From positions 32,001-96,000 of IMG/VR virus record IMGVR_UViG_3300009509_000004: 64,000 nt of DNA. The stretch is one strand, 5' to 3'. The notes under the pieces were generated by a model. It was not told the origin of the DNA. It worked only from the letters and a program-made list of their open reading frames with translations, and searched no databases. This document shows, in pieces, positions 16,000 through 64,000 of this stretch. The stretch is from a virus. Positions within the stretch are counted from its first letter, which is position 1. Each line of letters opens with the position of its first letter. The translations under genes and the position numbers were made by a program.

Positions 16000-18279
16000 T
16001 TAGCCTACAGACTCAAAGATGCCCTGCTTGCCGATGCGGATGATGAACCGCTCAACCGTGTCTGCGAGTCTGAGCTTGATCTCTGAGATCATGTCGCCGT
16101 TGGCCCGCGTTGCGTCGGTGTTCAATTCCTCATCCAACTTGATGATGCACGCTTCCTCAAACTTGGCACCTCTCAGCGCCCGCTTGGTGAACTCCGGCAA
16201 GAAGAATGACTTGAGAGCTGACAGCGCCAGCTTCTCAGTGACTGGATCGTTGATTGCGAACACAATCCAGTCAAAGCTCTCTTGGAGCACGTGCTCATAG
16301 TAGGACATCTGCTCACGCTGATGCTTCCACTTCCATGTGGGGTCTGTGTTGACCGTGCGGTCACCCCAGATGATGAAGTTGCCCTTGAGCTTCTTGATCA
16401 CAGCGATGCCCGCTGGATTGAGCACTTCCTCGTTGAGCAAGGCATCCTTTGTCGGGATGTCGAGCAACTTGGGCAACTTGGCATCTAGGCCAGCTTCAGC
16501 CTTGTGATAGCCATCATAGTCAGCTGCGATGCGCGCCTCTCGCCCATGGATCATGCCGGTGACCGGCACCAGCTTGGTCTTGCCCTCGCTGCTGAACGGA
16601 TCGGGCACCTCACCGTAGCTGGGGAATGCCACGACAGCATAGTCAGACCGACCCAGCGTGTCATTGACCTGCGTCAATGCGCCATCCTCGGTGACCACGT
16701 TGTCAGGGATCTCGTATCTGAACTGGTGATTCTTGGCATCCGCAAATGCCACACCAGCTTTCTGGACTGCGGTGGAAGTGATGCCTGGGCACGCATACTT
16801 GATCAGGCCCATGTTCTTGCCGATGACTCGGTTGAATGGGCTGAGACCAACATCCCACGCTTGCTGGATGTAGTCTGCATCGACCAAATCTGAAATGCCG
16901 TCCCTGCCGCCTTCCATCTCCAGCGGTGCCTCGACCATGAACTCATCTGCCGGTGCGCCGTCCACGGTGAGGTCAGAACCGTCTGCGACCGTGATGCTGT
17001 CATGGTCGTTGTCAACGATTCTGAATTTGGTGTTCTTGGCGTTGGGCTTGTCGGGGTACAGATAACCGCCAATGAGCGCGTCAGGGGTGAATGGCTTGTA
17101 GTTGATGACCAGAGTGTCGCCCGCCGCAACCGCTGTGATGCCTGCGGTCACTGTGAACTCAGGAGTCCACTTGTTGTTGGGGACAAATGCTACACCCAAA
17201 GTCACCGTGCCCAAAGCCCCAAACTTGTCACTCACAGCCGCGCCGCTCGTGGCATCGGCCATGGTGATGGTGATCTTCTGGGCCACCATATCATCGTCTG
17301 TGACGTCCAGCGCAAACGTGGGATCGCCCCCGCCAGCGCTGTTGACGGTGAAGTCATGGATGACTGCTGTGAGCACCGTTGCCGTCACGGTGTCGATGAG
17401 GCCCCAATGGTTGGCTGGCCGCACTGCTGCGGTGTGAGCGCCCGTCCAAAGATCGGTTGCCCAAATCTCATCGTTGCCGCCGTCCTTGTTGATGACATCC
17501 ACCCAATAGCGTGGGTCATTCGGATCGGTGGCCAGATTGGCATACTTCTTGACAAAGTCGCCATCCACGTACACGCTGATGCTGAACTCGCTGTCAGCCT
17601 TTTCCTCGCCGTCACCGATGAGGATGCTCAGCGCCTTGCCCTCGTTTTCCAGCACGAGGTAATAGCGCAAGCTGCTGCCAGACAGCGCGTTGTAGTCATC
17701 GAGCATCGTTTGATCAGCTGCAACCGTGACGATGCCAGCATCGTCGTTGCCAACGATGGGATAGCGCTTGTTGGGTACATCTTCAAGCTCAACCCAACCG
17801 CCCTTCCACTCATCTGTCTTCATAGCCAGACCAGTGTCCAGGGTGATGTTGGTGAGATCGCCGATTGCACTCATGTCATCTGTGAGCCGATTGAGCTTGC
17901 CGCCCCAGCGCCCGCCATTCTTGGCTTTCAACGTGCCCATCGGCGTGAGCAGCGAGCCATAGCGCGCATACAGAGTCATCCCAGCGGCAAGCTCGTTGCC
18001 GTCTGTGACCCTGATGAGCATGAGACCACCAGCCCCGTTTGCCAGGTCATAGTAGTCAAAAGCGCAGTCAGGAAGCAAGGAATCAGGGATGATTCCACCA
18101 CACTTCTTCTGGAACTGCTTTTTGTTTTGTGCGAAAATGAGCTCACCGACTGGGCCCTTTTCCATGACCCCAGCATAAGCCGCCCAACCAAGGGCACCTG
18201 GCTCAATGCCTTTTTCGCCTTCAAGCTCGATGATGGTGACGCCCGCGCCTCTTGTCGGGCCAAACCGCCGTTGTGCCAT
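16000..18279 (-). CDS. Contractile tail sheath protein
   Basis: GVTIIE...GVMEKGPVG N-terminus; LNPAGIAVI...IWGDRT...WIVFAIND...VERFIIRI C-terminus. Confidence 0.95.
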   Translation of the reverse strand: MAQRRFGPTRGAGVTIIELEGEKGIEPGALGWAAYAGVMEKGPVGELIFAQNKKQFQKKCGGIIPDSLLPDCAFDYYDLANGAGGLMLIRVTDGNELAAGMTLYARYGSLLTPMGTLKAKNGGRWGGKLNRLTDDMSAIGDLTNITLDTGLAMKTDEWKGGWVELEDVPNKRYPIVGNDDAGIVTVAADQTMLDDYNALSGSSLRYYLVLENEGKALSILIGDGEEKADSEFSISVYVDGDFVKKYANLATDPNDPRYWVDVINKDGGNDEIWATDLWTGAHTAAVRPANHWGLIDTVTATVLTAVIHDFTVNSAGGGDPTFALDVTDDDMVAQKITITMADATSGAAVSDKFGALGTVTLGVAFVPNNKWTPEFTVTAGITAVAAGDTLVINYKPFTPDALIGGYLYPDKPNAKNTKFRIVDNDHDSITVADGSDLTVDGAPADEFMVEAPLEMEGGRDGISDLVDADYIQQAWDVGLSPFNRVIGKNMGLIKYACPGITSTAVQKAGVAFADAKNHQFRYEIPDNVVTEDGALTQVNDTLGRSDYAVVAFPSYGEVPDPFSSEGKTKLVPVTGMIHGREARIAADYDGYHKAEAGLDAKLPKLLDIPTKDALLNEEVLNPAGIAVIKKLKGNFIIWGDRTVNTDPTWKWKHQREQMSYYEHVLQESFDWIVFAINDPVTEKLALSALKSFFLPEFTKRALRGAKFEEACIIKLDEELNTDATRANGDMISEIKLRLADTVERFIIRIGKQGIFESVG

Positions 18280-51029: not shown

Positions 51030-52040
51030 CTCCCTTTCTGTGGGCTGGGTGTGAATGTGCCTGTTTGGTCCTACGTGGTTTGCTGCAGTGGGTCAAGCTG
51101 AAACGACCTCGTGCGCGTCGTGTGTCGATGGGGACAGCAACCCCACACTTGATGGCCGTGTGGACGCATGGCCGCTTGGCCGGTGCATGTGATGAGTGAG
51201 TGTGGCCGTGTGGCCGGTTGGTGGGTGGCGTGGGCGCATGAGCGCTTGACGTTGTGGCCTGTGTGCAAAATTTTTGTTGTGCAGTAGGCGCGGTGCAGGC
51301 ATGCAGCACTCAGCGCACCGCGCACTCGGTTTCATGCACAGTGGGGGCCACAGGCGAGCGCACGATGTACCAAACCTCCAAGAATCCTTGGACTTCATGG
51401 CCGCATGGCTGACATGGTTGGCATAGTTGACAGCGCTGTAGACTCTGTAGCCCCAGGGCCACATTGCCTCATGGCCCCCAGCGCAATGCTCTGCAGGCGG
51501 CATGGCTGCAGGGTGTGCGTGTGACTGTGCAGCTGTGCTGCACTGCATGTGGCAGGGCCACCCCACCATTTCCACGTTTCCACAATTCCACGACACCCAC
51601 CTTGCTTGCCTGCTCTCTCTCTGCTGCTTTCTGTACCGTCTGACTCTACATCTATGCCTATGCTACCTACAATGCTATATGTTGTTTGTCCTCTTGCCTA
51701 CCCTACGGTGATCGAGGTATCTGCTGGGGTGCTATCTTCTCTGCCTGATACACTCCACTGTTCCCCTTCATTTCACACGGTTCTCAGATTGGCTATATGG
51801 TTTGTCTCATGCGGGGATTTTTGGGATTGGCAAGATCCTATCATTGGTGGTATGTATTCTTGTTTTCTATGGCTGATGTCGGTCTGTGGAATCTCTCAAA
51901 ATCCTATTGGATATGGGTGTATTGTTGTCTTCAGGGCATATTCATAGGGGCATGCATATATAGGGGCAATTTGCCCCATATCTGATGGGGTTTCACAAAA
52001 CAGGCTATCAACGCCTGGAAATCAGGCGTGTAAATGGGGG
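51030..52040. other. ~1-kb non-coding region with nested inverted repeats and an AT-richer half
   Basis: No credible ORF; nested stems at 51242-51361; TTCCAC x3 near 51570-51591. Confidence 0.6.
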
Positions 52041-52382
52041 TCAATCTAGGTCGCTGGGGTAGGTGCGTCTGTACCATTCCAGGTACATGGCCCATTGGCG
52101 GGTTGCTGTGCGGTATTGGTCCTGGTAGCCCTTCTGCCTCTTGATCTCTGATACCCACTTTTCCACAAGCTCCAGAGATAGCGATCCTGGGTGCTCCCTG
52201 ATATGGCGTTCCACCTCTGTTCGCAATCCTACCATCCCTGATAGGGCACCCTCCCACCTGAGCATCATTTTCCTGCGCTCTTGTTCCTCCTTGCCCTCCC
52301 TCTCTTGCTGTTTTTTCACACGTGCAAAATCGTGGTCTGTGATCAGGCCTGCTTTCTGGAGTGCGGCTGCCATGAGTGTCAT
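52041..52382 (-). CDS. Hypothetical protein
   Basis: Start at MTLMAAALQKAGL; 4-nt overlap with the upstream gene. Confidence 0.6.
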   Translation of the reverse strand: MTLMAAALQKAGLITDHDFARVKKQQEREGKEEQERRKMMLRWEGALSGMVGLRTEVERHIREHPGSLSLELVEKWVSEIKRQKGYQDQYRTATRQWAMYLEWYRRTYPSDLD

Positions 52383-52609
52383 TGCGGTGGCCCTTTTTGT
52401 GTTGATTCCACTTTCAATGTGACTTTTGCGCCACAGGCGAGACAGCCCTTGGGCCCAACTGGTGATTCGTTGGATGCATATTCTGACATCTCGATGAAAT
52501 GGCCCCAATATTGCTCCAAATTCACATCTTTCATGTCATCTTCCTGTGTGATCGTGAACCTCTGCTCGTGTCCATTTTCACACGTGGCCAAAATTGTGGT
52601 GATTCTCAT
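52379..52609 (-). CDS. Zn-ribbon protein
   Basis: CENGH...CLAC; coupled. Confidence 0.55.
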   Translation of the reverse strand: MRITTILATCENGHEQRFTITQEDDMKDVNLEQYWGHFIEMSEYASNESPVGPKGCLACGAKVTLKVESTQKGPPQ

Positions 52610-52962
52610 CGCTCCTTGTCCTTTTTGTGTGGTATATCCATCTCAATATCGTGGCCTGGCATTTTGTCCACCACGCCGTCCAACAGATCCAGCGCCTCGC
52701 TCTTGTCCAGCCCTGGTTTCAGCTCGCCCTCAAGTCTGGGATCGCCGTCAGGCAATTCCTCAAACACACTTTCTGGCTCTTTTGGTGCGCTCTCACCTGG
52801 ATCACCGCATCTCACGCATGGTCCTGGCCGCGCCCATCCTACATCGACCTTGTCAACCCTGTAAATCACCATCAGCTCTTTGAGCTTGTGCAAAAAGTCA
52901 GCTTGATCTTCTTTCAACCCTGTCATTCTGATGTCGCCCACCAGATCGCCTGTTATTTCCAT
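52606..52962 (-). CDS. Acidic hypothetical protein
   Basis: GGAG RBS before MEITG. Confidence 0.5.
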   Translation of the reverse strand: MEITGDLVGDIRMTGLKEDQADFLHKLKELMVIYRVDKVDVGWARPGPCVRCGDPGESAPKEPESVFEELPDGDPRLEGELKPGLDKSEALDLLDGVVDKMPGHDIEMDIPHKKDKER

Positions 52963-53119
52963 GTGCGTTCTCCCTGTTCCTGCTCCTGATGTCCTCAACT
53001 TTGAGCCGCGTCTGTTCCTTGACTGCCATCGTCAACACTCTGACCGCCTCGTTGAGCCATCCCACATTTTCCTTCAGCTCCTGAATTGCTTCTGCCAGCT
53101 CTCTTGTCTGGTTTTCCAT
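52898..53119 (-). CDS. Small coiled-coil protein
   Basis: GGAGG RBS before MENQT; overlaps its neighbours. Confidence 0.4.
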   Translation of the reverse strand: MENQTRELAEAIQELKENVGWLNEAVRVLTMAVKEQTRLKVEDIRSRNRENAHGNNRRSGGRHQNDRVERRSS

Positions 53120-53432
53120 TTGTGCGCCCCTCCCCCAGTGCGTTTTCCGCAAGCTCGATGATGACGTCCAATAGGTCGCCCACCTTTGCCAGCGGGATGT
53201 GCTCTGCGCGCAATTCTGCTGGAATAAGCAACACCGTCGCATTGACCTCCATCCCCTTGATCTGCTGCGACAGGTTCTCAACCACGCCAGGTGGTGGTTC
53301 ATGACCCTCATTGTATTGGATGAGCAACACCTCGCCGTCCCTGAGTGTGAATTTGCTCACGATCTTGTCCCAGCCATCCCCTGGAACAATCGGATCTTTC
53401 AATTTGTCTGTCCATCGCCTATTTCTCTTCAT
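52995..53432 (-). CDS. Hypothetical protein
   Basis: Globular-looking N-terminal ~100 aa. Confidence 0.5.
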   Translation of the reverse strand: MKRNRRWTDKLKDPIVPGDGWDKIVSKFTLRDGEVLLIQYNEGHEPPPGVVENLSQQIKGMEVNATVLLIPAELRAEHIPLAKVGDLLDVIIELAENALGEGRTNGKPDKRAGRSNSGAEGKCGMAQRGGQSVDDGSQGTDAAQS

Positions 53433-54018
53433 TTGTTGGGCACCCCCTGCGCATCCACTCTCGCCGTTCTTCAAGCGTCATTGGTTTGAGGTGGTCTGTC
53501 ACCACTTCCTCGCTGTGCTCCAACACCTCGCCGATGAAGCGCCCCTGTGCATCAATCGTGCCCACTTTGTACTCAAACCCTTGCTGTGAATACACATGCA
53601 ATATTGCACAGGTTACACCCTCGCTGGGCCTGACCAACTCCAACCTGCCAACCCAATCTCCCCTCCACAGCTCTTCAGTGATACACCTGTGCTGTTCTGA
53701 ACAACCAACCGTCCACCCGTCATCACGGATGAACACATATTTCAACGTCTTGAACACCTCTTTGGGTGTTCTTGTAGGTGATGCTGCCTCGCCTTTGTTG
53801 TTGACCACGACTCTCTGTGGCCCTTGGTGCATTACTGTGCGCGCCGCCCTGACCGCCGCCCTCTCTTCAGGCAGGATCTCTCGCCTGACATGAGCGTCAT
53901 ATCCAATCGGATCATCGATGATGATGACGCACCTACATTGCGGGTGCTGGATTGGCTCTGTATTGTCAGAACGTGTCCGCAAGCACTCCCTCCAGCCTCC
54001 ACCATTCTGGATCTTCAT
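53419..54018 (-). CDS. Hypothetical protein
   Basis: 199-aa ORF in a run of coupled genes. Confidence 0.5.
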   Translation of the reverse strand: MKIQNGGGWRECLRTRSDNTEPIQHPQCRCVIIIDDPIGYDAHVRREILPEERAAVRAARTVMHQGPQRVVVNNKGEAASPTRTPKEVFKTLKYVFIRDDGWTVGCSEQHRCITEELWRGDWVGRLELVRPSEGVTCAILHVYSQQGFEYKVGTIDAQGRFIGEVLEHSEEVVTDHLKPMTLEERREWMRRGCPTNEEK

Positions 54019-54625
54019 GCCTCACGTCCTTGAGTCTGAAGTCCATCTGTTTCTCTGGTGGAATTTTTGGCAGCCGTATGCACTCATTGACCTCGTGCAG
54101 CAGCTCGTGATACAGCGCTGACTCGGCAATGGTACCCTTCCACTGTACCAACAACCTGTATCCCCACTGGATGCCTGCCTTGTTCTTGAGCTCATATCGT
54201 CCCACCCAAATGCTGACCTTGCCGACCTCCCACTCAACTCCTGTGCGGCACAGCATCGCCTCGATTTCATCCCTGGTGGCCTCTTTTTGCTCGACCTCCA
54301 TCACGTCCAAGAATCTGTCCAATGCCTTTTCCATCAGGCCTGGCGTGAGTCTTGCGATGTTGTCTGCCCAAACTGCTGTGCCGTGTTTTGTGATGTAGTC
54401 AGGCCTCGCCATCCACTTTTTGAAGAAGTACAGCAACGTGAGCCCAACAAAAGATCCCCACGACAGCGCAAGCACAACAATTTTTGGCGCAGTCCACTCC
54501 TGCTTGGTCAAGATCGCCCCGACCCCAGCAGCCGTGTACAGCAGGCAAAGCCCCCCAAACACAATCAAGTCCAGCGTCTTGACTCCACGTCTGCGCTGGG
54601 CTAGGTCTGCCTTGACTTCAACCAT
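53966..54625 (-). CDS. Membrane protein with an HExxH zincin-like motif
   Basis: Two N-terminal TM helices; SALYHELLHE...RH. Confidence 0.6.
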   Translation of the reverse strand: MVEVKADLAQRRRGVKTLDLIVFGGLCLLYTAAGVGAILTKQEWTAPKIVVLALSWGSFVGLTLLYFFKKWMARPDYITKHGTAVWADNIARLTPGLMEKALDRFLDVMEVEQKEATRDEIEAMLCRTGVEWEVGKVSIWVGRYELKNKAGIQWGYRLLVQWKGTIAESALYHELLHEVNECIRLPKIPPEKQMDFRLKDVRHEDPEWWRLEGVLADTF

Positions 54626-54966
54626 TCTCGCATTTCCTCCACTGTATCAAATGGTGGCCCTTTTCTCTCTGCCTTCATGGGCTTTGCCTGGCAGTAATAT
54701 GTGAAGCCGCCAAATGTGTCACGCTCTTTTTCGATGGGGAGATTCAGGTCAAACCCGTGATCGCGCAACCACTCGGTTGTCGTGAACTCCACCTCTTTCA
54801 ACCCGCCATTCCAGTCTAGCACCTCCTGATCTGGCAATTGTGCCTCGATGAGGTGGAAGTGTTGACCATCAATGGATATGACCTTGACGTCATTGCCATC
54901 ATCGTCGATGTCTTCATCCTCGATGGTGGCGCGTGCGATCATTTCCATTGTAATCAACTGGCTCAA
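54601..54966 (-). CDS. Acidic hypothetical protein
   Basis: Coupled ORF, 121 aa. Confidence 0.55.
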   Translation of the reverse strand: MSQLITMEMIARATIEDEDIDDDGNDVKVISIDGQHFHLIEAQLPDQEVLDWNGGLKEVEFTTTEWLRDHGFDLNLPIEKERDTFGGFTYYCQAKPMKAERKGPPFDTVEEMREWLKSRQT

Positions 54967-55478
54967 TCTGCTCTCCCTTTCATCTGCATCACTTTTTGGT
55001 CCACAACATCAGGAGCGATCTTGGGAAGCTCCAGCTGCACCTGCACCTGTTCTTGGACAGGCTCCATAGGGGCAGCCTCATCAGCCTCCACATCACTTGG
55101 CGTTGAAGAACTTGTTGCGCTTGCTGGCCTGCGCCCAGCTCTGTGCCTGGGTGCGACTCTGTCAAGCGCTTCTGCATCCTTCAACGTCCTTTCAGCACGC
55201 CTGTTCAATAGAGCAAGCGCACCTCTGATCTCCCCTATGGCCTCTCTCATGTCACCGATGAGCTGATCGCGTTGCGATGCTTGATCTGATAGCCTGTTCA
55301 CCGCCGTGACCAAGAGCTGATACGCTTGTTCAAGCTGCGCCTCTTGCTTGGCAACCTGTCTCGTTGTTGCATCTTCAGCGGTCAACGCCTGGATGTATGT
55401 CAGCCCAACTCCTGCGAGTGCAGCGATGCCAGCGAGCAAGCCGCCCCAATCCTTCACCTTCTGTCTTGCTCCAGCCAT
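54963..55478 (-). CDS. Membrane-anchored coiled-coil protein
   Basis: N-terminal TM (GGLLAGIAALAGVGLTYIQAL) followed by heptads. Confidence 0.6.
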   Translation of the reverse strand: MAGARQKVKDWGGLLAGIAALAGVGLTYIQALTAEDATTRQVAKQEAQLEQAYQLLVTAVNRLSDQASQRDQLIGDMREAIGEIRGALALLNRRAERTLKDAEALDRVAPRHRAGRRPASATSSSTPSDVEADEAAPMEPVQEQVQVQLELPKIAPDVVDQKVMQMKGRAD

Positions 55479-55486
55479 CACACACC

Positions 55487-55696
55487 TCAAAATCTTGGAT
55501 GTGGCCCAGATGTCATGTGCCGGTTGAATTCTGTGAAATCGCCTGGTGTTGGCGGTGGCAGCCCAGCTTCCACATATTCACGGACTGCCAAGGTGAGTGC
55601 TTTTGCTCGTGCAGCAGGTATGGTTGGCCCGCTGCCTTCATACGCCTTGTTGTCGGTGTTGACGAGTGTGACTGTGTAATAGTTTGGACGCGCCAT
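55487..55696 (-). CDS. Small hypothetical protein
   Basis: AGGAGG RBS before MARPN. Confidence 0.55.
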   Translation of the reverse strand: MARPNYYTVTLVNTDNKAYEGSGPTIPAARAKALTLAVREYVEAGLPPPTPGDFTEFNRHMTSGPHPRF

Positions 55697-55893
55697 GATC
55701 GCCTCCTGTAAGTGGTGTCCATCGTTGATTCTATTTCCCCTTACAGGATCAGCCAAGGTTTAGCTGAAATATGGTGCGTTTTTGGCTTGTCCAAAAATGC
55801 GTTTTCTGGTGTGTTTTGTGGTGTGCGTGTGACTTTGTATGGAGGTGGAATTGGGGGTGCCGTCTTGGTGTGTTTCCGGCACCCTCGATGTGG

Positions 55894-56400
55894 CTATTGG
55901 ATGACGAATGGCCCCTTTGGACCTGTGGCGATGGCCCCGCTGTAGAATTGCTTGAGCAATCCCCAAAGCGCCTGTCTTTGTGCATGTGGAACCACGTTGA
56001 CCTCGTTTTCGCCGTCCCAATGCCGCCCTGGGATGCGCCGCCAAGCGTGAAGTGAATCCTCGTTGTATGGCGTTTTGACGATGTAGGTGCCTGCGTGGTC
56101 AACAATCTTGACCGCAACGCACCTTTTCTCGATGCGATCTGCCAAGTTGTGGAATCCCAGATCCCTGAGTCTCGCAAGCGGCTCAACCGCGTCCATCCCG
56201 TTCTGAACGATGGCGATCTTGTAGACCAGCTGGTTGGCCTCTTTGCGGTCTGCCTCGCTGACCTCGACCTTGTTGAGAAGTCTTGCCCGACAATCTGGGC
56301 CCATTCCCGCCTCGACTGATGCCGCGTCAACCAACGGTTTGCCGCAGGCTGCGCAGTGGGTTGCGAGAATCTTGGTGGTTGGTGCTGTTTCGTATGACAT
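55894..56400 (-). CDS. DUF6011-like Zn-binding protein
   Basis: CAACGKPLVDAASVEAGMGPDC matches the DUF6011-type signature; preceded by the repeat promoter and AGGAGAACGG. Confidence 0.7.
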   Translation of the reverse strand: MSYETAPTTKILATHCAACGKPLVDAASVEAGMGPDCRARLLNKVEVSEADRKEANQLVYKIAIVQNGMDAVEPLARLRDLGFHNLADRIEKRCVAVKIVDHAGTYIVKTPYNEDSLHAWRRIPGRHWDGENEVNVVPHAQRQALWGLLKQFYSGAIATGPKGPFVIQ

Positions 56401-56440
56401 GCCCGTTCTCCTTTCAGGTGGTTTGCCTTCCACCTTTTCT

Positions 56441-56503
56441 TCAAGTATAGTTGGCTTGCTTCCATAAGTCAAGAAAAAACGACCTCAGAGACAACTTTTT
56501 TTG
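56441..56503 (-). promoter_or_regulatory. Repeat promoter copy 1 (TTGACT-17-TATACT)
   Basis: Same upstream A7GTTG...GGTCGT6C box as the other copies. Confidence 0.85.
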
Positions 56504-56856
56504 TATGCCTGATACAGCGCAACGTTCAACGTTGCCGTCCTGGCCGGTTTCTGGACAAGCCTTGTGCCGTTTGTGTGTTGCGCAAGCGCATCGAGCCATC
56601 CCCCTGTGTAAATGACCACTGGAAGTGGGCACCTTTCAATCATCACCCTTCCCCCGCCCAACGGCACATCCCAATCACTAAGCACCACGTCATACTTCCC
56701 TGTTGCCGCCTCGACCAGCCCCTGTTGTACTGTGTAAACTGCCTTGACTTGCTTCCAGTGGTCCTTGAGTTGCCTCTCAATCGCCCTCGCCAATGTTTCA
56801 TCATCTTCAACCACAAGCAAACTGAGCCGCCTGATGGTGCCCTCCATTCCAATCAT
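56485..56856 (-). CDS. Single-domain CheY-like response regulator
   Basis: LLVVEDD, YDVVLSD (phosphoacceptor), PVVIYTG and QKP are all present. Confidence 0.85.
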   Translation of the reverse strand: MIGMEGTIRRLSLLVVEDDETLARAIERQLKDHWKQVKAVYTVQQGLVEAATGKYDVVLSDWDVPLGGGRVMIERCPLPVVIYTGGWLDALAQHTNGTRLVQKPARTATLNVALYQAYKKSCL

Positions 56857-56877
56857 TTTTTCTCCTTGGTGGAAGTG

Positions 56878-56901
56878 AAAAGGGCACCCAACGGGTGCCC
56901 C
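56878..56901 (-). terminator. Intrinsic terminator
   Basis: AGGGCACCC-3nt-GGGTGCCCT stem running into a T tract on the minus strand. Confidence 0.75.
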
Positions 56902-56925
56902 TCTCGCTCCTATGTTGTCGCCCTG

Positions 56926-57939
56926 TCAGGCGATGGCTTCCAAAATCATCTCAGCCTCATCCTCTGCCCTCGGATCCAACGACCAACGCTTGATTCCCCT
57001 GAAGCGCTTGACGTCAACGTCAATCGGATTCAGGAAGCGAACAAAGCTGCCGTTGATCTCGACACCTTCTGGGCTGATGATACCGTCTGTGACCAGCTGC
57101 TCAACGATCTCCTTGGCGCTCTTGCTCTCGCCCTCTTTGGTGTCTGTCACAACGTAAACACCGCCCGCGTGGCGCTTGCCGCACTTGCGCTTGGCCTCGA
57201 CCTTGACCAACCGCTCTTCAACCGTCCTGAAGCCTCGCTCTTTTTCCATCTGGTCCTTGACCACCTCGGTGTCCTCTGCCTTCAGAATATACTCAACCGC
57301 GTCAGGGAGAAACAAACCAAACACCTTGGCGTCTGGAAGTCTGCCCGTGCCGCCGCACGTTTCGCACATTTCCTTGTCCAAAACGTTGGCGATGTTGAAT
57401 TTTTGCGGCTGATGAAGCCAGTAGTTGTATTTGCGATAGTCCCAACGCTCTGACTTGAGCCCCTCGCCGTTTGCGACTGTAGCGTGGCCGCCTGTGCCGC
57501 CCTCGACATGATCTGACATGCCGCTGATCTCGCCTTGGAGTTTGAGCGCCTTCTGCGCCCTGCGCTCGATGAGCTTGTTGATGCGGTCGATGTCGGCCTG
57601 GCCGCCTTCTGCGTCGCAAACGCCCTTGTCGATGCTCTCTTGGACGCCCTTGGCGTTGTCTTCCAGATCCTGGATCTCCTTTTGGAGATTTTGGAGCGCT
57701 TGCTTGGCCTTGCGCTTTTCTGGATTTTCGATGGTGCCGAGACAATCCGCGCACTCGTGGAAGCTGCCCTCATCGTGCGCGACGAAAATGACGGTGCCCT
57801 CTTGCGTGAGCGCCTGCCCTACGTCTGCGTTGGGTAGCCTCTTGGAAATGCCCTGCGTGACCGCCTCGCCCGTCCAATCCTCGATGGACTTGTAGTGCTC
57901 TGACCCGACCCACATGAGATAGCTTTGCTTGATTTCCAT
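56926..57939 (-). CDS. Early protein with a split CxxCxGT Zn finger and a coiled-coil insert
   Basis: CADCLGT ... CETCGGTG flank a coiled coil; KCGKRHAGGVY; start moved to MEIKQ, after AGGAGAACGG. Confidence 0.75.
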   Translation of the reverse strand: MEIKQSYLMWVGSEHYKSIEDWTGEAVTQGISKRLPNADVGQALTQEGTVIFVAHDEGSFHECADCLGTIENPEKRKAKQALQNLQKEIQDLEDNAKGVQESIDKGVCDAEGGQADIDRINKLIERRAQKALKLQGEISGMSDHVEGGTGGHATVANGEGLKSERWDYRKYNYWLHQPQKFNIANVLDKEMCETCGGTGRLPDAKVFGLFLPDAVEYILKAEDTEVVKDQMEKERGFRTVEERLVKVEAKRKCGKRHAGGVYVVTDTKEGESKSAKEIVEQLVTDGIISPEGVEINGSFVRFLNPIDVDVKRFRGIKRWSLDPRAEDEAEMILEAIA

Positions 57940-57980
57940 GTCCGTTCTCCTTTGTTTGGTGTTTGCCCTCACCATCTAAT

Positions 57981-58055
57981 ACAATTATAGTTGGCTTGCT
58001 TCCAGAAGTCAAGAAAAAAACGACCTTGGAGGCAACTTTTTTTGTCTCCACGTCC
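57981..58055 (-). promoter_or_regulatory. Repeat terminator-promoter copy 2
   Basis: TTGACT-tctggaagcaagccaac-TATAAT. Confidence 0.9.
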
Positions 58056-58453
58056 TACAACTTGGTGTAGCCCTTTTTCTGCTTGGCCTTCACCAGATCG
58101 GCAAACACGTGTTCTGCCTTGCCTTGGGATGGATACTTGCCCTTGATCTGCCTCTGGAGAGAATGCGTGCGCCGCCCCCACTCGATTGTCACCTGGAAGT
58201 CGCCATCTGCAAGCCTGTCCAAGTGGACGTTGTACACCTTGTCCGATGTCCCTTGGCGATAGGCCAAGTTGGTCGTCACGATCCTGGCTGCCTCTGTCGC
58301 CCCGTGTGCGTTCTTTGTGTCCAGCGCGTCTGCTATGACGTCTGGTATGGCCTTGGCCTCTGCCGCTTCCCTCCGCACATCCTCGACACTTTTCAGCACG
58401 CCCTGCCCAAAAGTGCCCTCCCTCATCGCCTTTCTGATTTGTTCGAGATCCAT
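58055..58453 (-). CDS. WGR-domain protein
   Basis: GTSDKVYNVHL...VTIEWGRR...F..LVKAKQKKGY; the true start is MDLEQ inside the 404-aa ORF. Confidence 0.85.
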   Translation of the reverse strand: MDLEQIRKAMREGTFGQGVLKSVEDVRREAAEAKAIPDVIADALDTKNAHGATEAARIVTTNLAYRQGTSDKVYNVHLDRLADGDFQVTIEWGRRTHSLQRQIKGKYPSQGKAEHVFADLVKAKQKKGYTKL

Positions 58454-58463
58454 GATCCACCTC

Positions 58464-59297
58464 TCAATCGAAGCAACCCGTGTTTCGCCAGTACACCTTG
58501 AGGTCTGGGTCGAAATACACGGTGTTGTCCGGTGACTCGTATGTTTGCCCCTTCTTGGCCCCTTCCCGCTCAAACGCCACCACGTAGGAATTGACGATGA
58601 ACTCGCCGTTGCTGAATCGCAGCTGCGTCCAGCCCTTGTCGCAGAGCGCTTCCAGCGCGTTGTCGCTGATGGAGCACGGCAATTTGCGCTCTGGCTGCCT
58701 GACCTTGAGGATGTGATCGGGGTGGATCCAACGGACATCGCTTGGGCCTCTGAACCGTTTGCCCATCGCTGCCCCCATCGCCTTGAGCATCGCCAGATCC
58801 GACTCGATGCCCCTGAGATTGCGCTCGATGCCGACCTTGCCCGACTGGAAGTTGACTTTTGCCACCCGCTCCCACTTGCTGCCGTCCCTGTAATTGACCA
58901 ACACCTCGTCACCGATGCTGATTTTTGTGCCGCTGGGTGCGTTGCGCCAAAATTGTGACCCGTTGTAATCCAGATCGCCGATTGCCGCCCTGCCTCGCTC
59001 TGCCCGCGCCTGCTTCCGTTCTTGGACTTCCTGCTGCGTGCCTTCCATCTGTCCCAACGCCTCGTTGAGCTGCTCCTGGGTGTATGTGCCCTTGGGCAGC
59101 CCCAAAAGCGCCTCGCCCTTGACCGTCCAAGCGTAGGTTTTGCCTGTGCGCTCGATGGGCGCAAGCGTGTACTCTCGCTTGCCTGCGTATTTGCCCCGCC
59201 TGATGTACCTGGCGCTTTGGATGACGCAATCGATCCTTTTGCCTTTCGACATGATGCTGACCGCGTCACCTACCTTGAGTGCTTTGAGATCTGTCAT
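58464..59297 (-). CDS. Early protein with tandem SH3/KOW-like beta barrels
   Basis: LKVGDAVSI and ISIGDEVLVNY segments; AGGAGAACGG RBS. Confidence 0.65.
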   Translation of the reverse strand: MTDLKALKVGDAVSIMSKGKRIDCVIQSARYIRRGKYAGKREYTLAPIERTGKTYAWTVKGEALLGLPKGTYTQEQLNEALGQMEGTQQEVQERKQARAERGRAAIGDLDYNGSQFWRNAPSGTKISIGDEVLVNYRDGSKWERVAKVNFQSGKVGIERNLRGIESDLAMLKAMGAAMGKRFRGPSDVRWIHPDHILKVRQPERKLPCSISDNALEALCDKGWTQLRFSNGEFIVNSYVVAFEREGAKKGQTYESPDNTVYFDPDLKVYWRNTGCFD

Positions 59298-59351
59298 GCC
59301 CGTTCTCCTTGTTGGGTTGCCAACCCTCTTTGTTTTCTACTGAGCTGCCAC

Positions 59352-59639
59352 TTACAGCGCTGAAATTGCCGCCTCGATGTCTTCTGCCGATGCTCCGTTG
59401 AATTTCCCAAACTCCCTGACGCCTTTTTCGGTGATTTCTGCGAAGTAGTGCTTGACCTTGCGGGTGCGCTGCTCGCTGAAAACCTTGATGAGCCCTTCCT
59501 CGGTGAGCTGCTTGACCGCCTCGCCATATCCTGCCTGGAACCAATCTGGGCTGCGAAAGTTGGTGCCCAACTCGATGATGCCGCCGTTGGTGTTGAGGAT
59601 GTTGATGAGAATGTCTTTTTGCGCCTCGTTGAAATTCAT
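59352..59639 (-). CDS. Small winged-helix-like protein
   Basis: AVKQLTEEGLIKV...EITEKG. Confidence 0.65.
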   Translation of the reverse strand: MNFNEAQKDILINILNTNGGIIELGTNFRSPDWFQAGYGEAVKQLTEEGLIKVFSEQRTRKVKHYFAEITEKGVREFGKFNGASAEDIEAAISAL

Positions 59640-59650
59640 CGTGACCTCCT

Positions 59651-59731
59651 ATTCTTCAATTATAGTTGGCTTGCTTCCAGAAGTCAAGAAAAAAACGACC
59701 TTGGAGGCAACTTTTTTTGGCTCCATCGTTC
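59651..59731 (-). promoter_or_regulatory. Repeat terminator-promoter copy 3
   Basis: Core identical to copies 2 and 5. Confidence 0.9.
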
Positions 59732-59826
59732 TCCACCTCCTTGACGATGTGTGTTTTTTATACACACACCTGCCCGTGGCCGCCTGGCTGGGCAGCCGCC
59801 TGCGCGCCCCGCTGCCGCCGCCGTGC

Positions 59827-60003
59827 CTACTGGCGGTGTGGCGGCTTGACCCGCTTGACCTTGCCCGCCTTGGTGTTGCGGGAGTGGTTGGCCTTTGAGC
59901 GGGAAAAAAGGGTGCGGCAGAATCCGTCGTTGCGGTCGTTGTAGCTGCCGACCTCGATGAAAAGCGCCTTGCGGATGGAGATCTGATTTGCGTTGTTGGT
60001 CAT
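59827..60003 (-). CDS. 58-aa basic protein
   Basis: Translated by hand as MTNNANQISIRKALFIEVGSYNDRNDGFCRTLFSRSKANHSRNTKAGKVKRVKPPHRQ; directly behind the repeat promoter and leader. Confidence 0.65.
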   Translation of the reverse strand: MTNNANQISIRKALFIEVGSYNDRNDGFCRTLFSRSKANHSRNTKAGKVKRVKPPHRQ

Positions 60004-60020
60004 GTCCGTTCTCCTTTGCC

Positions 60021-60101
60021 CTATTCTTCAATTATAGTTGGCTTGCTTCCAGAAGTCAAGAAAAAAGTTGCCTTGGGGCCAATTTTTTTTGACCCCAAGG
60101 C
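60021..60101 (-). promoter_or_regulatory. Repeat terminator-promoter copy 4
   Basis: 13-bp stem (60070-60082/60089-60101), then a T tract, then TTGACT-17-TATAAT. Confidence 0.9.
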
Positions 60102-60113
60102 GTGACACCTCCC

Positions 60114-60341
60114 TCAATAGACGATCCAACCCCGCCCCATGTTGTCCCTGCGTCGTGGGATGTCCTCTGCCGGCACGTCCAACTTCCCTGCGTACACCCC
60201 GACCATCAGCGGATCGTCGCAGACGATCCCAACACAAGTGGAACCGTACATACAACGCCCCGAATATGTTGGGCGCACGCTCGCCTCGTATCCGTCTGAC
60301 TCCAACGCCTCCACGATTTTCTCTGCTTGCTCCAACGTCAT
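60114..60341 (-). CDS. Small conserved phage protein
   Basis: YSGRCMYGSTCVGI...DNMGRGWIVY pattern; AGGAGAACGG RBS. Confidence 0.7.
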   Translation of the reverse strand: MTLEQAEKIVEALESDGYEASVRPTYSGRCMYGSTCVGIVCDDPLMVGVYAGKLDVPAEDIPRRRDNMGRGWIVY

Positions 60342-60354
60342 GTCCGTTCTCCTT

Positions 60355-60660
60355 TCAATCCAAAGTGAAGCGCACGACCCAGCCTGAACCGTGCGCGGCG
60401 TGAGTGTATTGAACGGGTGCGCTCGCCTGCCGTAGCTGACCGCCGTGGAGGTGGTGGAAGTAGGGTTGCCGGATGAGCGCCCTCAAAACCACCTCCTGGA
60501 CCTTCCTGATGTCCTGGAAGTCTGCTGGCGAGTCTGCGAGCACGGTGACCTCTGCTCCGATGACCTGATATGGGTCGTGCTGGCGACCTCTCGCTGCCGC
60601 TTTGACCATTAGACTGGGCCTGAACCCAGCCTTGATCGGATTTTGGTGGATGACCTTCAT
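60355..60660 (-). CDS. Hypothetical protein
   Basis: 4-nt start/stop overlap with the upstream gene. Confidence 0.55.
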   Translation of the reverse strand: MKVIHQNPIKAGFRPSLMVKAAARGRQHDPYQVIGAEVTVLADSPADFQDIRKVQEVVLRALIRQPYFHHLHGGQLRQASAPVQYTHAAHGSGWVVRFTLD

Positions 60661-60842
60661 TCTCGCTTCCCCTCGACCTCGACTGAGAATTTCAACTCAA
60701 TGTCGTATCCGTTCTCAGGATTTTCGTGAACAAAATCGACCATTTCCTTGAGCGCTTCCATTGCCTCCTGCCAGGAAAGATCCCGATCTGTACACCGACC
60801 GTCCACCCAAAATTCCACTTTTTTCAGTAGTTTTGTCTTCAT
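60657..60842 (-). CDS. Small hypothetical protein
   Basis: MKTKLLKKVEFWVDG start after GGAGAACGG. Confidence 0.6.
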   Translation of the reverse strand: MKTKLLKKVEFWVDGRCTDRDLSWQEAMEALKEMVDFVHENPENGYDIELKFSVEVEGKRE

Positions 60843-60855
60843 TGCCCGTTCTCCC

Positions 60856-61335
60856 TTAGCTGCTTGCCAAGCCAAAAAATACAAAAACTTTGCCGTGTCG
60901 CCCCGCCATCCCGTAGCGCTTTTTGTACTCGACCGTTGCGCTGTAGCCCAACTCGATGGCGAGCGCTGGCCCCCACTTGTCGTTGTAGCGCCTGGCGTGA
61001 CTGAGCGCCCAGGTGCGATACTGCTTGGGAACCTGACGGATGAAATTGCGCTTGGCCTCTTTGTCGTCTGAATCCGACTCCTGGAAGAATGCCGCCGCCT
61101 CGATCCAACCGATGGCCTTGCCGACCTTGACCTGCTTGTTGGGAAGCTGGATGAGGGTGTAACCGTGCTTGGAAGCGATGTCGCCGCTGTAGCTGTAGAG
61201 ATCCTCATCGCAAGCGTCGTATCCGTCGCAAGCCATATCCGCCCGCCTCTCGCTGGCCGCCTGGTCTTGCGCGTTGCGGAAAGCCGCCCCGATGTCTTTG
61301 CCAAATGCCGTCGTTGAGAATTCACATGCGCCCAT
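60856..61335 (-). CDS. Conserved phage early protein
   Basis: MGACEF...YSGDIASK...DKWGPALAI...FVFFGLASS pattern. Confidence 0.7.
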   Translation of the reverse strand: MGACEFSTTAFGKDIGAAFRNAQDQAASERRADMACDGYDACDEDLYSYSGDIASKHGYTLIQLPNKQVKVGKAIGWIEAAAFFQESDSDDKEAKRNFIRQVPKQYRTWALSHARRYNDKWGPALAIELGYSATVEYKKRYGMAGRHGKVFVFFGLASS

Positions 61336-61356
61336 TTCCGTTCTCCTTTTGTTTGC

Positions 61357-61440
61357 CCTATTCTTCAATTATAGTTGGCTTGCTTCCAGAAGTCAAGAAA
61401 AAAACGACCTTGGAGGCAACTTTTTTTGTCTCCAAGGTCG
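61357..61440 (-). promoter_or_regulatory. Repeat terminator-promoter copy 5
   Basis: Perfect 11-bp stem (61405-61415/61430-61440), T7, then TTGACT-17-TATAAT. Confidence 0.9.
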
Positions 61441-61450
61441 CCATCTCCCC

Positions 61451-61786
61451 TCACTCTCCTTTCACAAACCAATCGACAGGGGCAAGCCCCAAGTATCCGT
61501 TCAGCCGCTCAAATACCTCGTTGGCGTCCAAGCAACCCTCGATCCGACTCCGCACCGCCTCCACGAAACACCGCGCCCCGATTGTCGAGACAACGCCGTT
61601 GAGAATCAGCCAACGGCCATCAGCGATCTCGATCTCCACCATCTTCCCATCTTCCTCAAATAGAATCTGGGCAGCTGTCTCGCCCTCGCCCACCTCCCAC
61701 GTATAGTGGGCACCCTCGCCATCGCCGTCCACGAAAAACCCAGCAACGATGGCTCTCTTGGTCTCTTTGATTTTCTTCTTCATCAT
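61451..61786 (-). CDS. Hypothetical protein
   Basis: AGGAGAACGG RBS before MMKKK. Confidence 0.6.
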   Translation of the reverse strand: MMKKKIKETKRAIVAGFFVDGDGEGAHYTWEVGEGETAAQILFEEDGKMVEIEIADGRWLILNGVVSTIGARCFVEAVRSRIEGCLDANEVFERLNGYLGLAPVDWFVKGE

Positions 61787-61822
61787 CCGTTCTCCTTTCA
61801 AGTTGGTATGCCGTCCAACCAT

Positions 61823-61897
61823 ACTTCAATTATAGTTGACACCCCCGACTATTTTTGGTCCATTTTGCAGGTTGGAGGCAATTTTTTTTGTCTCCAC
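61823..61897 (-). promoter_or_regulatory. Variant repeat promoter (TATAAT kept, -35 altered)
   Basis: caacTATAATtgaag and the upstream A-tract/TTGCCTCCAA box are retained; no TTGACT at 17 bp. Confidence 0.55.
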
Positions 61898-62131
61898 GTA
61901 CTTTTTTTGAGAGCCAATTTTTTTTTGCCTCCACGTTCTTTTTCTCTTGACTTCTGCTCCCCAATTTTCTCAATTTCCAAAGTCTATTGAATAGATTGCG
62001 GAGAACCCACGCCCGCTTGGCTCGTTTGCGTCGTGCCTCTCGCTCAAGCCCCGCTTGGATATGCTCCACCCATGCCGCTCGATGTGGGTTTTCTTGGCTC
62101 TGCCGATCTTGCAATTGCGGAAAGCCACGTC

Positions 62132-62191
62132 AAAAAAAGTTGGCTCTGAAGTCTCTTTTTTCTTGACTACAACTTCTTTTGGCGTTATACT
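62132..62191 (+). promoter_or_regulatory. Opposite-strand copy of the repeat promoter
   Basis: A7GTTGGCTCTGAAGTCTCT6C, TTGACT (62163-68), 17 bp, TATACT (62186-91). Confidence 0.8.
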
Positions 62192-62196
62192 ATACT

Positions 62197-62337
62197 TGCG
62201 GGGTGTATGCTGCATTCGCGTGCTACCGTTTGCCTGAACCTTCTAACGCGCCGCGTTAGAGCAAGGCAGATCTCCCCCTTCCTCCCCAGCGGTGCTGGTA
62301 GGTACCAGTACTGTCCTGGATGTGCTTCCACCTGCTC
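62197..62337 (+). ncRNA. Candidate small RNA
   Basis: Downstream of the plus-strand promoter; two hairpins flank a C-rich tract; no convincing ORF. Confidence 0.45.
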
Positions 62338-62550
62338 CTACGGCAGAACGTGGACCACGGTGAAGCCTCTCGACTGCGCCGTGGCCTTGGCCTGCTGGCG
62401 TGCCTCGGTGAAGGTGCCGGTGAAGCTGACCCAATTATCCATGTTGTCTGGATCGTCGCCCAGAGCGAACATCCACGCCCCAAAACCCTTGGGTTGCTTC
62501 ATGTGACTGCGGAAGAATGCTGCGGTTTCAACTGATACTCTCTTTGCCAT
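62338..62550 (-). CDS. Small conserved phage early protein
   Basis: SHMKQPKGFGAWMF...GTFTEARQQA...VHVLP; behind the repeat promoter. Confidence 0.7.
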   Translation of the reverse strand: MAKRVSVETAAFFRSHMKQPKGFGAWMFALGDDPDNMDNWVSFTGTFTEARQQAKATAQSRGFTVVHVLP

Positions 62551-62565
62551 GTCCGTTCTCCTTTG

Positions 62566-62642
62566 CCCTATTCTTCAATTATAGTTGGCTTGCTTCCAGA
62601 AGTCAAGAAAAAAACGACCTTGGAGCCAACTTTTTTTGACCC
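62566..62642 (-). promoter_or_regulatory. Repeat promoter copy 6
   Basis: TTGACT-17-TATAAT with the conserved leader. Confidence 0.9.
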
Positions 62643-62671
62643 ACCACTTCCACTGAGCAATGCCCTGAACA

Positions 62672-62705
62672 GAAAAGTAGGAGTGCCCCACAACGGGGCA
62701 CTCCT
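62672..62705 (-). terminator. Intrinsic terminator
   Basis: AGGAGTGCCCC-5nt-GGGGCACTCCT followed by ACTTTT on the minus strand. Confidence 0.8.
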
Positions 62706-62735
62706 TGGGCAAATGGAGAACGGATGACGATCTGG

Positions 62736-63344
62736 TCAGCGCTGATCTGTCTTCAAGATCCCAAAGCGCTGCGTGAGCTTGTATTCATCGATGAGCTGAT
62801 CTGCGATGTCCTTGTTGCCCAGCTCTTGGGCAAGCATCGTCAGCACCAACCCGATGATGTTGTGCGTGTAGTTGCCATTCTGTTGGAGTGCTCGCCTGAT
62901 GCGCGATCTCGCCTTGGTGACTGCTTCTGGCTCGTTGTCCGGCACCTTGTCGCAGATGCACTCGACCCTGCCGCAGATCTCACAAAGTGGGCGTGGGGCT
63001 GGCTTTTCCGATTTGCTGGGTGCCTTCTTGGCCTCCCTCGCTGCCTCCCCTGCCGCCTCTCGTGTTTTCGATTTGATCTTGACCTTCCCCTTGGGCTTGG
63101 TCTGCTTTTTGCCTCCTTGCTGTGTTTCTGCGTGCTGGCCCTCGCTGGGTGCCTCTGGTGCCGTGTAGCCTTTCTCTCTGATGTCGCCGTGAGCTTCGCA
63201 ATCTGGATTGCGACAGAATGCGTATGGGTCAGACTTCTTGACTGACCTGTACTTGCCTGCCGCCTGAAGCTCTGGGTCTGGCATGTGCTTGAAGAGAATC
63301 TTGCCGCACGCGGGACAAGGTGGCTGTTTTGGTCTGCCTGCCAT
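62736..63344 (-). CDS. Zn-finger-containing protein with a basic linker
   Basis: CPAC...CRNPDC and CEIC...CIC; AGGAGG RBS. Confidence 0.7.
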   Translation of the reverse strand: MAGRPKQPPCPACGKILFKHMPDPELQAAGKYRSVKKSDPYAFCRNPDCEAHGDIREKGYTAPEAPSEGQHAETQQGGKKQTKPKGKVKIKSKTREAAGEAAREAKKAPSKSEKPAPRPLCEICGRVECICDKVPDNEPEAVTKARSRIRRALQQNGNYTHNIIGLVLTMLAQELGNKDIADQLIDEYKLTQRFGILKTDQR

Positions 63345-63356
63345 GGTAGCCTCCTG

Positions 63357-63941
63357 TTATGCCCGCTCGATGACGGTTGCTAGGTTGAAAAGTGCCTCGC
63401 TGATTTCGCTGCGCCCCTTGACCTCTGCGACCTCTGCGAGACTGAGGGTGCGCTCGATGGCGCTGTCCCTGTCGTAACTGAACTGCTGCGTTTGCGCGAC
63501 TTGAAGCGCCTTGTCGGTGTACTCTTTGGCCGTCGTGAACTCGTGACCGTTGAGCGCCCGCTCGATGACCTGAAGCGCCTCTTGAACGATGTGGACGGTG
63601 ACCTTGCCGTAGCTGGTGCTGCGACGGTTGCCTGCGTAGGTGGTGCGCGTCCAAACCTGGTAGCCCTTTGCGCGCTTGATTTGCTGGGCCTGCTCCCAAA
63701 GCTCCTTTGCGATGGCCCAAGTGAAAGTGACCTCGGTGATCTCGACTGCCGACTTGACAAACGCCTTGCTTTCGCCGTGTCGGGTGCTGGCCCCGCCGTT
63801 GCGCGCTTCCTTGGCGCTGCTTACCTCGCCCCAACACCGCACGATGGCTTCTGGCTTGGCGCGAAAGTCGATGGCCTGAACGATGTACTTGCGACCCGTT
63901 GCTTTGACTTCTGCGATGCGTTCTTTTCTGATTGGCTTCAT
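63357..63941 (-). CDS. Hypothetical early protein
   Basis: Behind the repeat promoter and AGGAGAACGG RBS. Confidence 0.7.
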   Translation of the reverse strand: MKPIRKERIAEVKATGRKYIVQAIDFRAKPEAIVRCWGEVSSAKEARNGGASTRHGESKAFVKSAVEITEVTFTWAIAKELWEQAQQIKRAKGYQVWTRTTYAGNRRSTSYGKVTVHIVQEALQVIERALNGHEFTTAKEYTDKALQVAQTQQFSYDRDSAIERTLSLAEVAEVKGRSEISEALFNLATVIERA

Positions 63942-63956
63942 TCCCGTTCTCCTTTG

Positions 63957-64000
63957 CCCTATTCTTCAATTATAGTTGAAGCCAATCCAGAAGTCAAGAA
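63957..64000 (-). promoter_or_regulatory. Repeat promoter copy 7, cut by the window edge
   Basis: TTGACT-tctggattggcttcaac-TATAAT. Confidence 0.85.

Follow-up and report, generated by a model that had tools for sequence, protein, structure and literature searches.

A probable array of PeSL-like terminator/early-promoter cassettes in an uncultured myovirus outside the T4-like lineage

Introduction

What separates and promotes the small, unrelated genes at one end of a phage genome segment when nearly the same noncoding element precedes each short group of them? This question is raised by a stretch of IMG/VR virus record IMGVR_UViG_3300009509_000004 (the window: 64,000 nucleotides (nt), bases 32001-96000 of the 106,758-bp genome of the phage under study, G000), where an initial annotation had described insulated early-gene cassettes bounded by a repeated terminator-promoter-leader element. 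The annotation compared this element to the promoter-early stem-loop (PeSL) cassettes of T4-like phages. Those cassettes, described in RB49/phi1, PST, and nt-1, combine a promoter of sigma70-like type with an AT-rich tract upstream, a stem-loop terminator/attenuator, and a Shine-Dalgarno (SD) sequence with ATG, and they occur in ORFan-rich hyperplastic regions with recombination between units (Arbiol et al. 2010, PMC2839356; Comeau et al. 2014, PMC4122927). Mobile regulatory cassettes of this type have until now been documented mainly in T4-like phages.

With a probability of roughly 0.68, we interpret the locus as a PeSL-like array of terminator/early-promoter cassettes in a non-T4 myovirus, with units that have been homogenised by recombination and that mark a hyperplastic interval. 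According to this model, the hairpin and T-tract of a unit would stop or attenuate transcription arriving from upstream, a near-consensus promoter of the host sigma70 type (TTGACT-17-TATAAT) would restart it, and a short leader with a strong SD sequence (AAGGAGAACGG) would complete the unit. The units would divide 7.6 kb into eight cassettes, each with a promoter of its own and made up of orphan genes that host RNA polymerase presumably transcribes early. Within the genome, the copies would be kept alike by recombination or gene conversion, and genes would likely be gained and lost by homologous exchange between units, as has been proposed for the T4-like PeSLs.

The repeated unit

All seven minus-strand copies listed in the initial annotation are found at the places it gave, its coordinates corresponding to the -10/leader end of each unit (Table 1), and the variant that it reported near 61823 (unit F) indeed keeps TATAAT and the leader without a -35. 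A 29-nt core (TTGACTTCTGGAAGCAAGCCAACTATAAT) has six minus-strand matches (five exact, one with two mismatches), compared to 0 expected from 100 dinucleotide shuffles, and a repeat search of the window recovered a 100-nt family with six members at 67–100% identity. Genome-wide, every one of the nine sites of the strict pattern TTGAC[AT]-N16-18-TA[TC]A[AC]T falls inside a unit: seven in the array, one on the plus strand (window 62163-62191), and one at cobS. A tenth unit, with the -10 TAGACT, heads cobT, and a promoter consensus scan returned eight sites matching at 10–11 of 12 positions within 52000-64000. The copies beyond those originally listed are a degenerate box (F'), the plus-strand copy (Ginv), and the cobS and cobT units.

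From 5' to 3' along the minus strand, the unit consists of an optional 5' arm ending GGAGNCA, A7-8, GTTGCCTCCAAGG, a right arm that is either GGTCG or GGCAAC, T6-7 C, TTGACT, a 17-nt spacer, TATAAT, a leader, and AAGGAGAACGG(R)CATG; it extends from directly after the preceding stop codon (or from the 5' arm) up to the next ATG. The box as originally given, A7GTTGCCTCCAAGGTCGT7C, is exact in B, C, and E and differs by one mismatch in G and four in A, but its GGTCG right arm does not apply to D and H, which contain GGCAAC instead. The spacer is identical in five copies and differs in copy H, and units D and G share 92% identity over 100 nt while their genes are unrelated. Two classes of leader are present: six of 16–29 nt with zero predicted structure, and hairpin leaders in A, B, F, I, and the B unit of the related metagenome fragment L095, the stems of which all differ while the loop keeps GGCAAA-like letters.

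The leader hairpins are located at window 56405-56435, 57950-57975, and 61795-61822, at genome ~16565-16590 (L104), and at L095 ~925-945. These leaders belong to older units (A, B, F, cobS, and L095-B), and their stems read GGTGG, GGTG, GGTTGG, GTTGGA, and GGCGG; in the young units the loop letters are kept and there is no stem. The centre of the unit H spacer (63975-63991), TTGGCTT, is the reverse complement of AAGCCAA in the other spacers (compared at 62584-62600), which may reflect either a small inversion or an earlier type of spacer.

Hairpins and terminators

The box takes part in two forms of hairpin. In H, I, and J it is itself a palindrome (GTTGCCT-CCA-AGGCAAC) between the A- and T-tracts, with short stems of 6–7 bp. 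In D and E the box pairs instead with an arm lying upstream of it, the A-tract forming the loop and the stem ending at the T-tract; the stem measures 13 bp in D (duplex -24.8 kcal/mol) and 10+3 bp in E (-20.8 kcal/mol). The paired positions of D and E differ on both sides, and each 5' arm suits its own right-arm variant. When the 25 nt upstream were replaced by random genome segments (5000), none of the 5000 did as well as the native sequence in D, and the fraction doing as well was 0.0006 in E, 0.15 in B, and 0.17 in C. The proposal that differing upstream sequences nonetheless pair with the box is borne out beyond chance in D and E but not in B and C (the pairing in C being bulged), and in A and G the upstream sequence does not pair with the box.

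The layout of an intrinsic terminator, a GC-rich stem followed by a U-tract, is found in D and E and in two hairpins separate from the units, one ending cassette H and one between genes B1 and B2. A unit of hairpin, T-tract, promoter, leader, and SD sequence does bound the cassettes, as originally described, but insulation appears uneven because convincing co-adapted stems are found only in D and E.

Phage lineage and comparison with described systems

The ends of the 106,758-bp record overlap by 144 bp. GC skew is negative throughout the window, and the minus strand carries nearly all long open reading frames (ORFs). Because its PHROG matches include a tail sheath, baseplate wedge, tape measure, portal, and large terminase, we assign the phage to the myoviruses. 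The closest GenBank terminases are those of SIO1-type podoviruses (~30% identity), and the terminase, portal, and capsid match non-T4 PHROGs, placing the array outside T4-like (Straboviridae) genomes. No DNA match to the array was found among 50,697 GenBank phage records. The host phage, uncultured and 107 kb in size, is by these gene matches a tailed myovirus unrelated to the T4-like lineage. On its upstream side the array is immediately preceded by genes encoding a 5'-3' exonuclease, a UDG-family protein, and a dCMP deaminase. Rfam searches at E<=1 gave two sub-threshold matches only, which we take as chance, and no tRNAs were found.

The array shares with the PeSLs a repeated composite motif with several parts in common. 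A sigma70-like -35/-10 pair, TTGACT-17-TATAAT, recurs in the seven array units and the cobS and cobT units; the region upstream of the -35 is AT-rich, with A7-8 and T6-7 flanking the box; and an SD sequence and start codon stand at the 3' end, AAGGAGAACGG(R)CATG closing every unit. The predicted stem-loop varies from copy to copy: strong in D and E, of moderate strength in the palindromes of H, I, and J, marginal in B and C, and weak in A and G. Like the PeSLs, the units are clustered in an ORFan-filled hyperplastic region in which gene content differs between relatives (12 of 15 proteins without a Pfam match; 0 to 13 genes between anchors). They differ in that the stem-loop is always upstream of the -35, in two alternative forms derived from one conserved box, and in that the copies are far more uniform, with identical spacers and leaders. 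The analogy drawn in the initial annotation is apt as to the composite unit, the hyperplastic region, and concerted evolution, but the phage is not T4-like (terminase ~30% identical to SIO1-type podoviruses; 107 kb), so the units are analogues of the described PeSLs rather than homologues.

Two other systems offer partial parallels. The SPO1 host-takeover module and the early-promoter clusters of Herelleviridae consist of numerous small early genes in short operons that are separated by terminators and have a strong promoter of the host type and a strong SD sequence apiece, a layout that the G000 array would share. To our knowledge, neither near-identical 100-nt repeats nor a part in recombination has been described for those clusters. 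Integron arrays likewise contain unrelated small genes separated by a repeated structured element and share the concept of plug-in cargo, but each G000 cassette has its own promoter, and any exchange would proceed through homologous recombination. A scan limited to proteins of the array and its immediate neighbours showed no integrase, and no attC-type site was identified.

A variable interval between fixed anchors

Searches with the terminase and B1 yielded two related genomes, G004 (105 kb, ~68% nucleotide identity, collinear) and G005 (104 kb), as well as the metagenome fragments L095, L096/L101, L097/L103, L098, and L100. A further genome, G003, is the same phage as G004 and identical to it over the region, so this pair provides no information on insertions or deletions. 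The anchor genes H2 and B1 occur in the same order across relatives, with C2 between them where present (G000, G004, and partially L095). Between H2 and B1 there are no genes in L100 (~75 nt), two in G005, two in L103, five in G004, and 13 in G000, where the interval includes six units counting F. Gene content in the interval thus varies between relatives, the order of the anchors itself being fixed. Genes without a counterpart in G004 are H1, G1, F1, E1-E4, D1, C1, C3, B2, A1, and the dCMP deaminase. Variants of H2, F1, E1, C2, B1, and B2 that are 99–100% identical are present in public assemblies.

The syntenic early region of G004 contains four units of its own type (TCGACT-17-TATGAT, with their own spacer/SD context), which follow A6GTTGCC boxes. 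A fifth unit, on the opposite strand, heads a DUF6011 gene missing from G000, and G005 has one box-like promoter in the interval. Genomes with ~1, 4, and 10 units and with 0 to 13 genes between fixed anchors form a natural series for array growth.

The G004 DUF6011 protein (285 aa; L087:9248-10208, +) is encoded in a ~4-kb segment absent from G000 and adjoins a 603-aa PKD/papain-like ORF. Downstream of its early region, G004 also carries a cluster of G-rich 54-nt direct repeats (GGGTGTGGGG...; L088:1142-1493). In L103 (1435-1833), an HNH-like nuclease gene in the interval lies behind an AT-rich region with TTGACT-17-TATGCT, the spacer of which matches that of unit H at 13 of 17 positions.

Concerted evolution of the units

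Fragment L095, in which B1 is 75% identical, has the layout C2-C3-unit-B1-terminator-B2-unit, which makes its two units orthologous to units B and A of G000. The loop letters track orthology, with CCA in both B copies and CTG in both A copies, and the right arm tracks the genome, with GGTCG in both G000 copies and GGCATC in both L095 copies. Between the G000 units the spacer is identical, and it is unlike the L095 spacers, which resemble the G000 cobS spacer. This mosaic of orthologous and paralogous similarity is the expected product of short-tract gene conversion among units, and points to such conversion here. We considered GGTCG as a state derived in G000 and dropped this candidate, as the G004 boxes have GGTCG too. 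Both GGTCG and the other right-arm variant are present in G004, indicating that the variants are old and were available as donors. The neighbours G, Ginv, and F' share a TTGGCTC box variant, consistent with local duplication and inversion.

Could the units instead be ordinary independent promoters and terminators, alike through tandem duplication and selection for expression, with no role in gene gain or loss? Selection alone would favour near-consensus -35, -10, and SD sequences, and the order of H2, C2, and B1 is kept in relatives. We nevertheless hold this explanation to be unlikely, because the identity covers positions on which no constraint is known (the leaders and, in five copies, the 17-nt spacer), the genes flanking the units are unrelated, spacer and right arm are closer among within-genome paralogues than between orthologues, and the number of units follows the size of the variable interval.

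Near-identity of many copies, one of them inverted, together with fragments (F' and an inverted leader) and distant copies at cobS/cobT, might also be left by a selfish mobile promoter element resembling miniature inverted-repeat transposable elements, spreading by itself into intergenic sites. This is very improbable: neither terminal inverted repeats nor target-site duplications were seen, the units end exactly at start codons and almost all of them lie in gene orientation, copies A and B are at orthologous positions in L095, and pattern searches recovered no copies in other viral or metagenome contigs. In those searches, the promoter pattern gave 62 matches in viral contigs, all single-copy and taken as chance; a stricter promoter pattern gave no matches in metagenome contigs, nor did a box plus -35 pattern in viral contigs.

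Weighing the cassette-array interpretation

Several observations weigh against a PeSL-like array as proposed here. Covariation across copies, which the initial annotation had suggested looking for, is not significant for either hairpin model in a 16-copy alignment compared with shuffles, nor does pairing exceed the shuffle control. No convincing hairpin adjoins the T-tract in units A, B, C, and G, where the best stem lies 6–7 nt away from it, and two cassettes bear separate canonical terminators instead. H1 stands between unit H and H2 and has no unit to itself, so that a unit does not accompany every gain; its gain or loss without a unit also fits the ordinary-promoter explanation. The relatives compared are 42–75% identical at the protein level, so breakpoints cannot be placed inside units, and part of the sharing pattern could be old polymorphism. 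Promoter activity, terminator activity, early timing, and exchange at the units are all properties that we infer from the DNA sequence. Finally, the left arm A6-7GTTGCC is kept across relatives despite flanking proteins that are ~40–55% identical; a plain terminator would not need this conservation, which leaves room for a sequence-specific factor.

The box may accordingly be mainly a protein-binding site (an operator, an activator site serving a factor of phage or host, or an UP-like element) with a secondary role, if any, as terminator. The left arm is retained in G000, L095, and G004 and partly in G005 and L103, while the right arm and its pairing partner vary. A6-7GTTGCC occurs 17 times in G000 and four times in G004 (0.4 and 0.2 expected, respectively), in either orientation (Ginv, G004 P4), and its distance to the -35 differs by ~10 bp between G000 and G004, preserving the helical face. 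No candidate binding protein was identified, however, and the good hairpins that end at the T-tract in D, E, H, I, and J are terminator-like, the A- and T-tracts around a palindrome being typical of bidirectional terminators. A predominantly protein-binding box therefore seems rather unlikely to us, although it and the cassette array are not mutually exclusive.

A bolder version of the same idea makes the box the DNA/RNA recognition site of a dedicated factor that drives both cassette capture and homogenisation, in the manner of an integron-like plug-in system in which one 30-nt element can act in two hairpin forms and either orientation. We consider this quite unlikely; if true, it could explain the rise from 1 to 4 to ~10 units among relatives. 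Lower still in probability is a two-state attenuator, in which an upstream GGAG..CAA/TTG..CTCC hairpin would alternate with the palindromic terminator GTTGCCT-CCA-AGGCAAC and tune read-through between cassettes. One segment, TTGCCTCC, is used by both pairings, and GGAGNCA stands in register ahead of the A-tract in most copies. Covariation of neither structure goes beyond shuffles, however, a copy usually has just one of the two options, and no sensor or leader peptide is evident, making such a switch highly improbable.

The PeSL-like cassette array remains our preferred interpretation. As a uniform, clearly delimited analogue in an unrelated group of uncultured myoviruses, it would be a new case of a known kind of system, and suggests that repeated terminator-promoter units may be a general means by which large phages keep accessory early genes and exchange them. 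Its strong promoter, open leader, and insulating hairpins might find use as expression parts as well.

Cargo genes

As originally stated, each unit precedes one to four unrelated genes: 15 genes form eight cassettes (2, 1, 1, 4, 1, 3, 2, and at least 1 gene), with no BLASTP similarity among them. No Pfam match was obtained for 12 of the 15 proteins, and the leads obtained come down to a lone WGR domain in C3, a lone receiver domain in B2, and matches to two PHROGs of unknown function. C3 (58055-58453) is a stand-alone WGR protein (Pfam 4e-07) that also matches the PADLOC candidate-system model WGR_XIII (E 7e-14). B2 (56485-56856) is a stand-alone response-regulator receiver scoring 29.5 bits, below the 30.2-bit Pfam cut-off. 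Besides the C3 WGR match, PADLOC returned for the cargo only weak SduA receiver-like (B2) and weak CARF (C1) matches. C3 and B2 could be decoys or signalling hijackers. The role of the cargo in host takeover or anti-defence, as inferred in the initial annotation, is conjecture, for which the WGR domain of C3 is the only lead; the cargo nonetheless constitutes a pool of candidate host-interaction genes.

Features of individual units and junctions

The coordinates of units, cassettes, and junctions are collected in Table 1. Unit G has an unstructured leader and a weak hairpin of its own. At the position of unit B, a unit is also kept in L095 and G004, and unit A, with the leader hairpin GGTGG-AAGGCAAA-CCACC, has an orthologous copy in L095.

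Table 1. Positions of units, cargo genes, and associated features in G000 (window coordinates unless marked as genome; aa, amino acids)
Feature	Position	Strand	Description
Unit H	63939..64000	-	Cut by window end; -35 63997-63992, spacer TCTGGATTGGCTTCAAC, -10 63974-63969, leader, SD, ATG 63941
Unit H box	genome 95999-96028, just beyond window	-	Palindrome A8 TTGCCT-CCA-AGGCAA C T6
Cassette H cargo	62736..63941	-	H1 63941-63357, 194 aa, in this phage only
H2	63344-62736	-	202 aa, zinc-ribbon-like; conserved in relatives, anchor gene
Inverted leader/SD fragment	62726-62707	+	GGGCAAATGGAGAACGGATG; in 3' untranslated region of H2, right before its terminator
Separate terminator hairpin	62705-62679	-	12-bp, GC-rich, T-rich tail; ends cassette H
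Unit G	62548..62652	-	Box A7GTTGGCTCCAAGGTCGT7 (62637-62608), -35 62606-62601, -10 62583-62578, ATG 62550
Cassette G cargo	62338..62550	-	G1, 70 aa, no family match
Inverted copy Ginv	62132..62191	+	Box and TTGACT-17-TATACT; faces ORF-poor DNA antisense to G1
Rearranged junction	61784..61940	-	Two degenerate boxes, F' (61940-61889) and F (61904-61853); minus-strand T-tract absent from both
Unit F promoter end	within 61784..61940	-	-35-less TATAAT 61835-61830, hairpin leader, SD, ATG 61786
Cassette F cargo	61451..61786	-	F1, 111 aa, no family match
Unit E	61333..61442	-	Upstream arm GCGACCTTGGAG pairs with CTCCAAGGTCG(T), A-tract in loop, then T7
Unit E promoter	-35 61396-61391, -10 61373-61368, ATG 61335	-	
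Cassette E cargo	60114..61335	-	E1 159 aa, phrog_37401; E2 61 aa; E3 101 aa; E4 75 aa, phrog_14658
Unit D	60001..60105	-	13-bp stem 60101-60070 (GCCTTGGGGTCAA / TTGGCCCCAAGGC), then AAC T6
Unit D promoter	-35 60059-60054, -10 60036-60031, ATG 60003	-	
Cassette D cargo	59827..60003	-	D1, 58 aa; AT-loop hairpin after it, ~59769-59746
Unit C	59637..59733	-	Consensus box, identical promoter 59687-59659, shortened leader with own SD, ATG 59639
Cassette C cargo	58055..59639	-	C1 95 aa; C2 277 aa, common to G004 and L095; C3 132 aa
Unit B	57937..58058	-	Consensus box, promoter 58012-57984, leader hairpin GGTG-AGGGCAAA-CACC, ATG 57939
Cassette B cargo	56485..57939	-	B1 337 aa, conserved anchor; B2 123 aa
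Internal terminator hairpin and T-run	~56900-56877	-	Between B1 and B2
Unit A	56398..56518	-	Diverged box A7GTTGTCTCTGAGGTCGT6, TTGACT-17-TATACT 56472-56444, ATG 56400
Cassette A first gene	55894..56400	-	A1, 168 aa, zinc-ribbon-like PHROG matches
cobS unit	genome 16601-16660, outside window		Heads cobS-like gene; perfect palindromic box
cobT unit	genome 15295-15355, outside window		Heads cobT-like gene; perfect palindromic box

As each has a unit with a perfect palindromic box, the cobS- and cobT-like genes are probably co-regulated with the array. No strict sigma70-like promoter other than Ginv lies on the plus strand of the genome. In the region 62132-62338 it is directed into ~150 nt of ORF-poor, structured, C-rich DNA, beyond which the sequence is antisense to G1, and Ginv may give rise to an RNA that is antisense or non-coding. 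Behind the inverted leader, a plus-strand ORF of 173 aa (62724-63245) runs antisense to H2; it was rejected as a gene candidate because the relatives contain antisense open frames of comparable relative length. The sequence GGAGAACGG has two further antisense copies, at genome positions 11156 and 65244.

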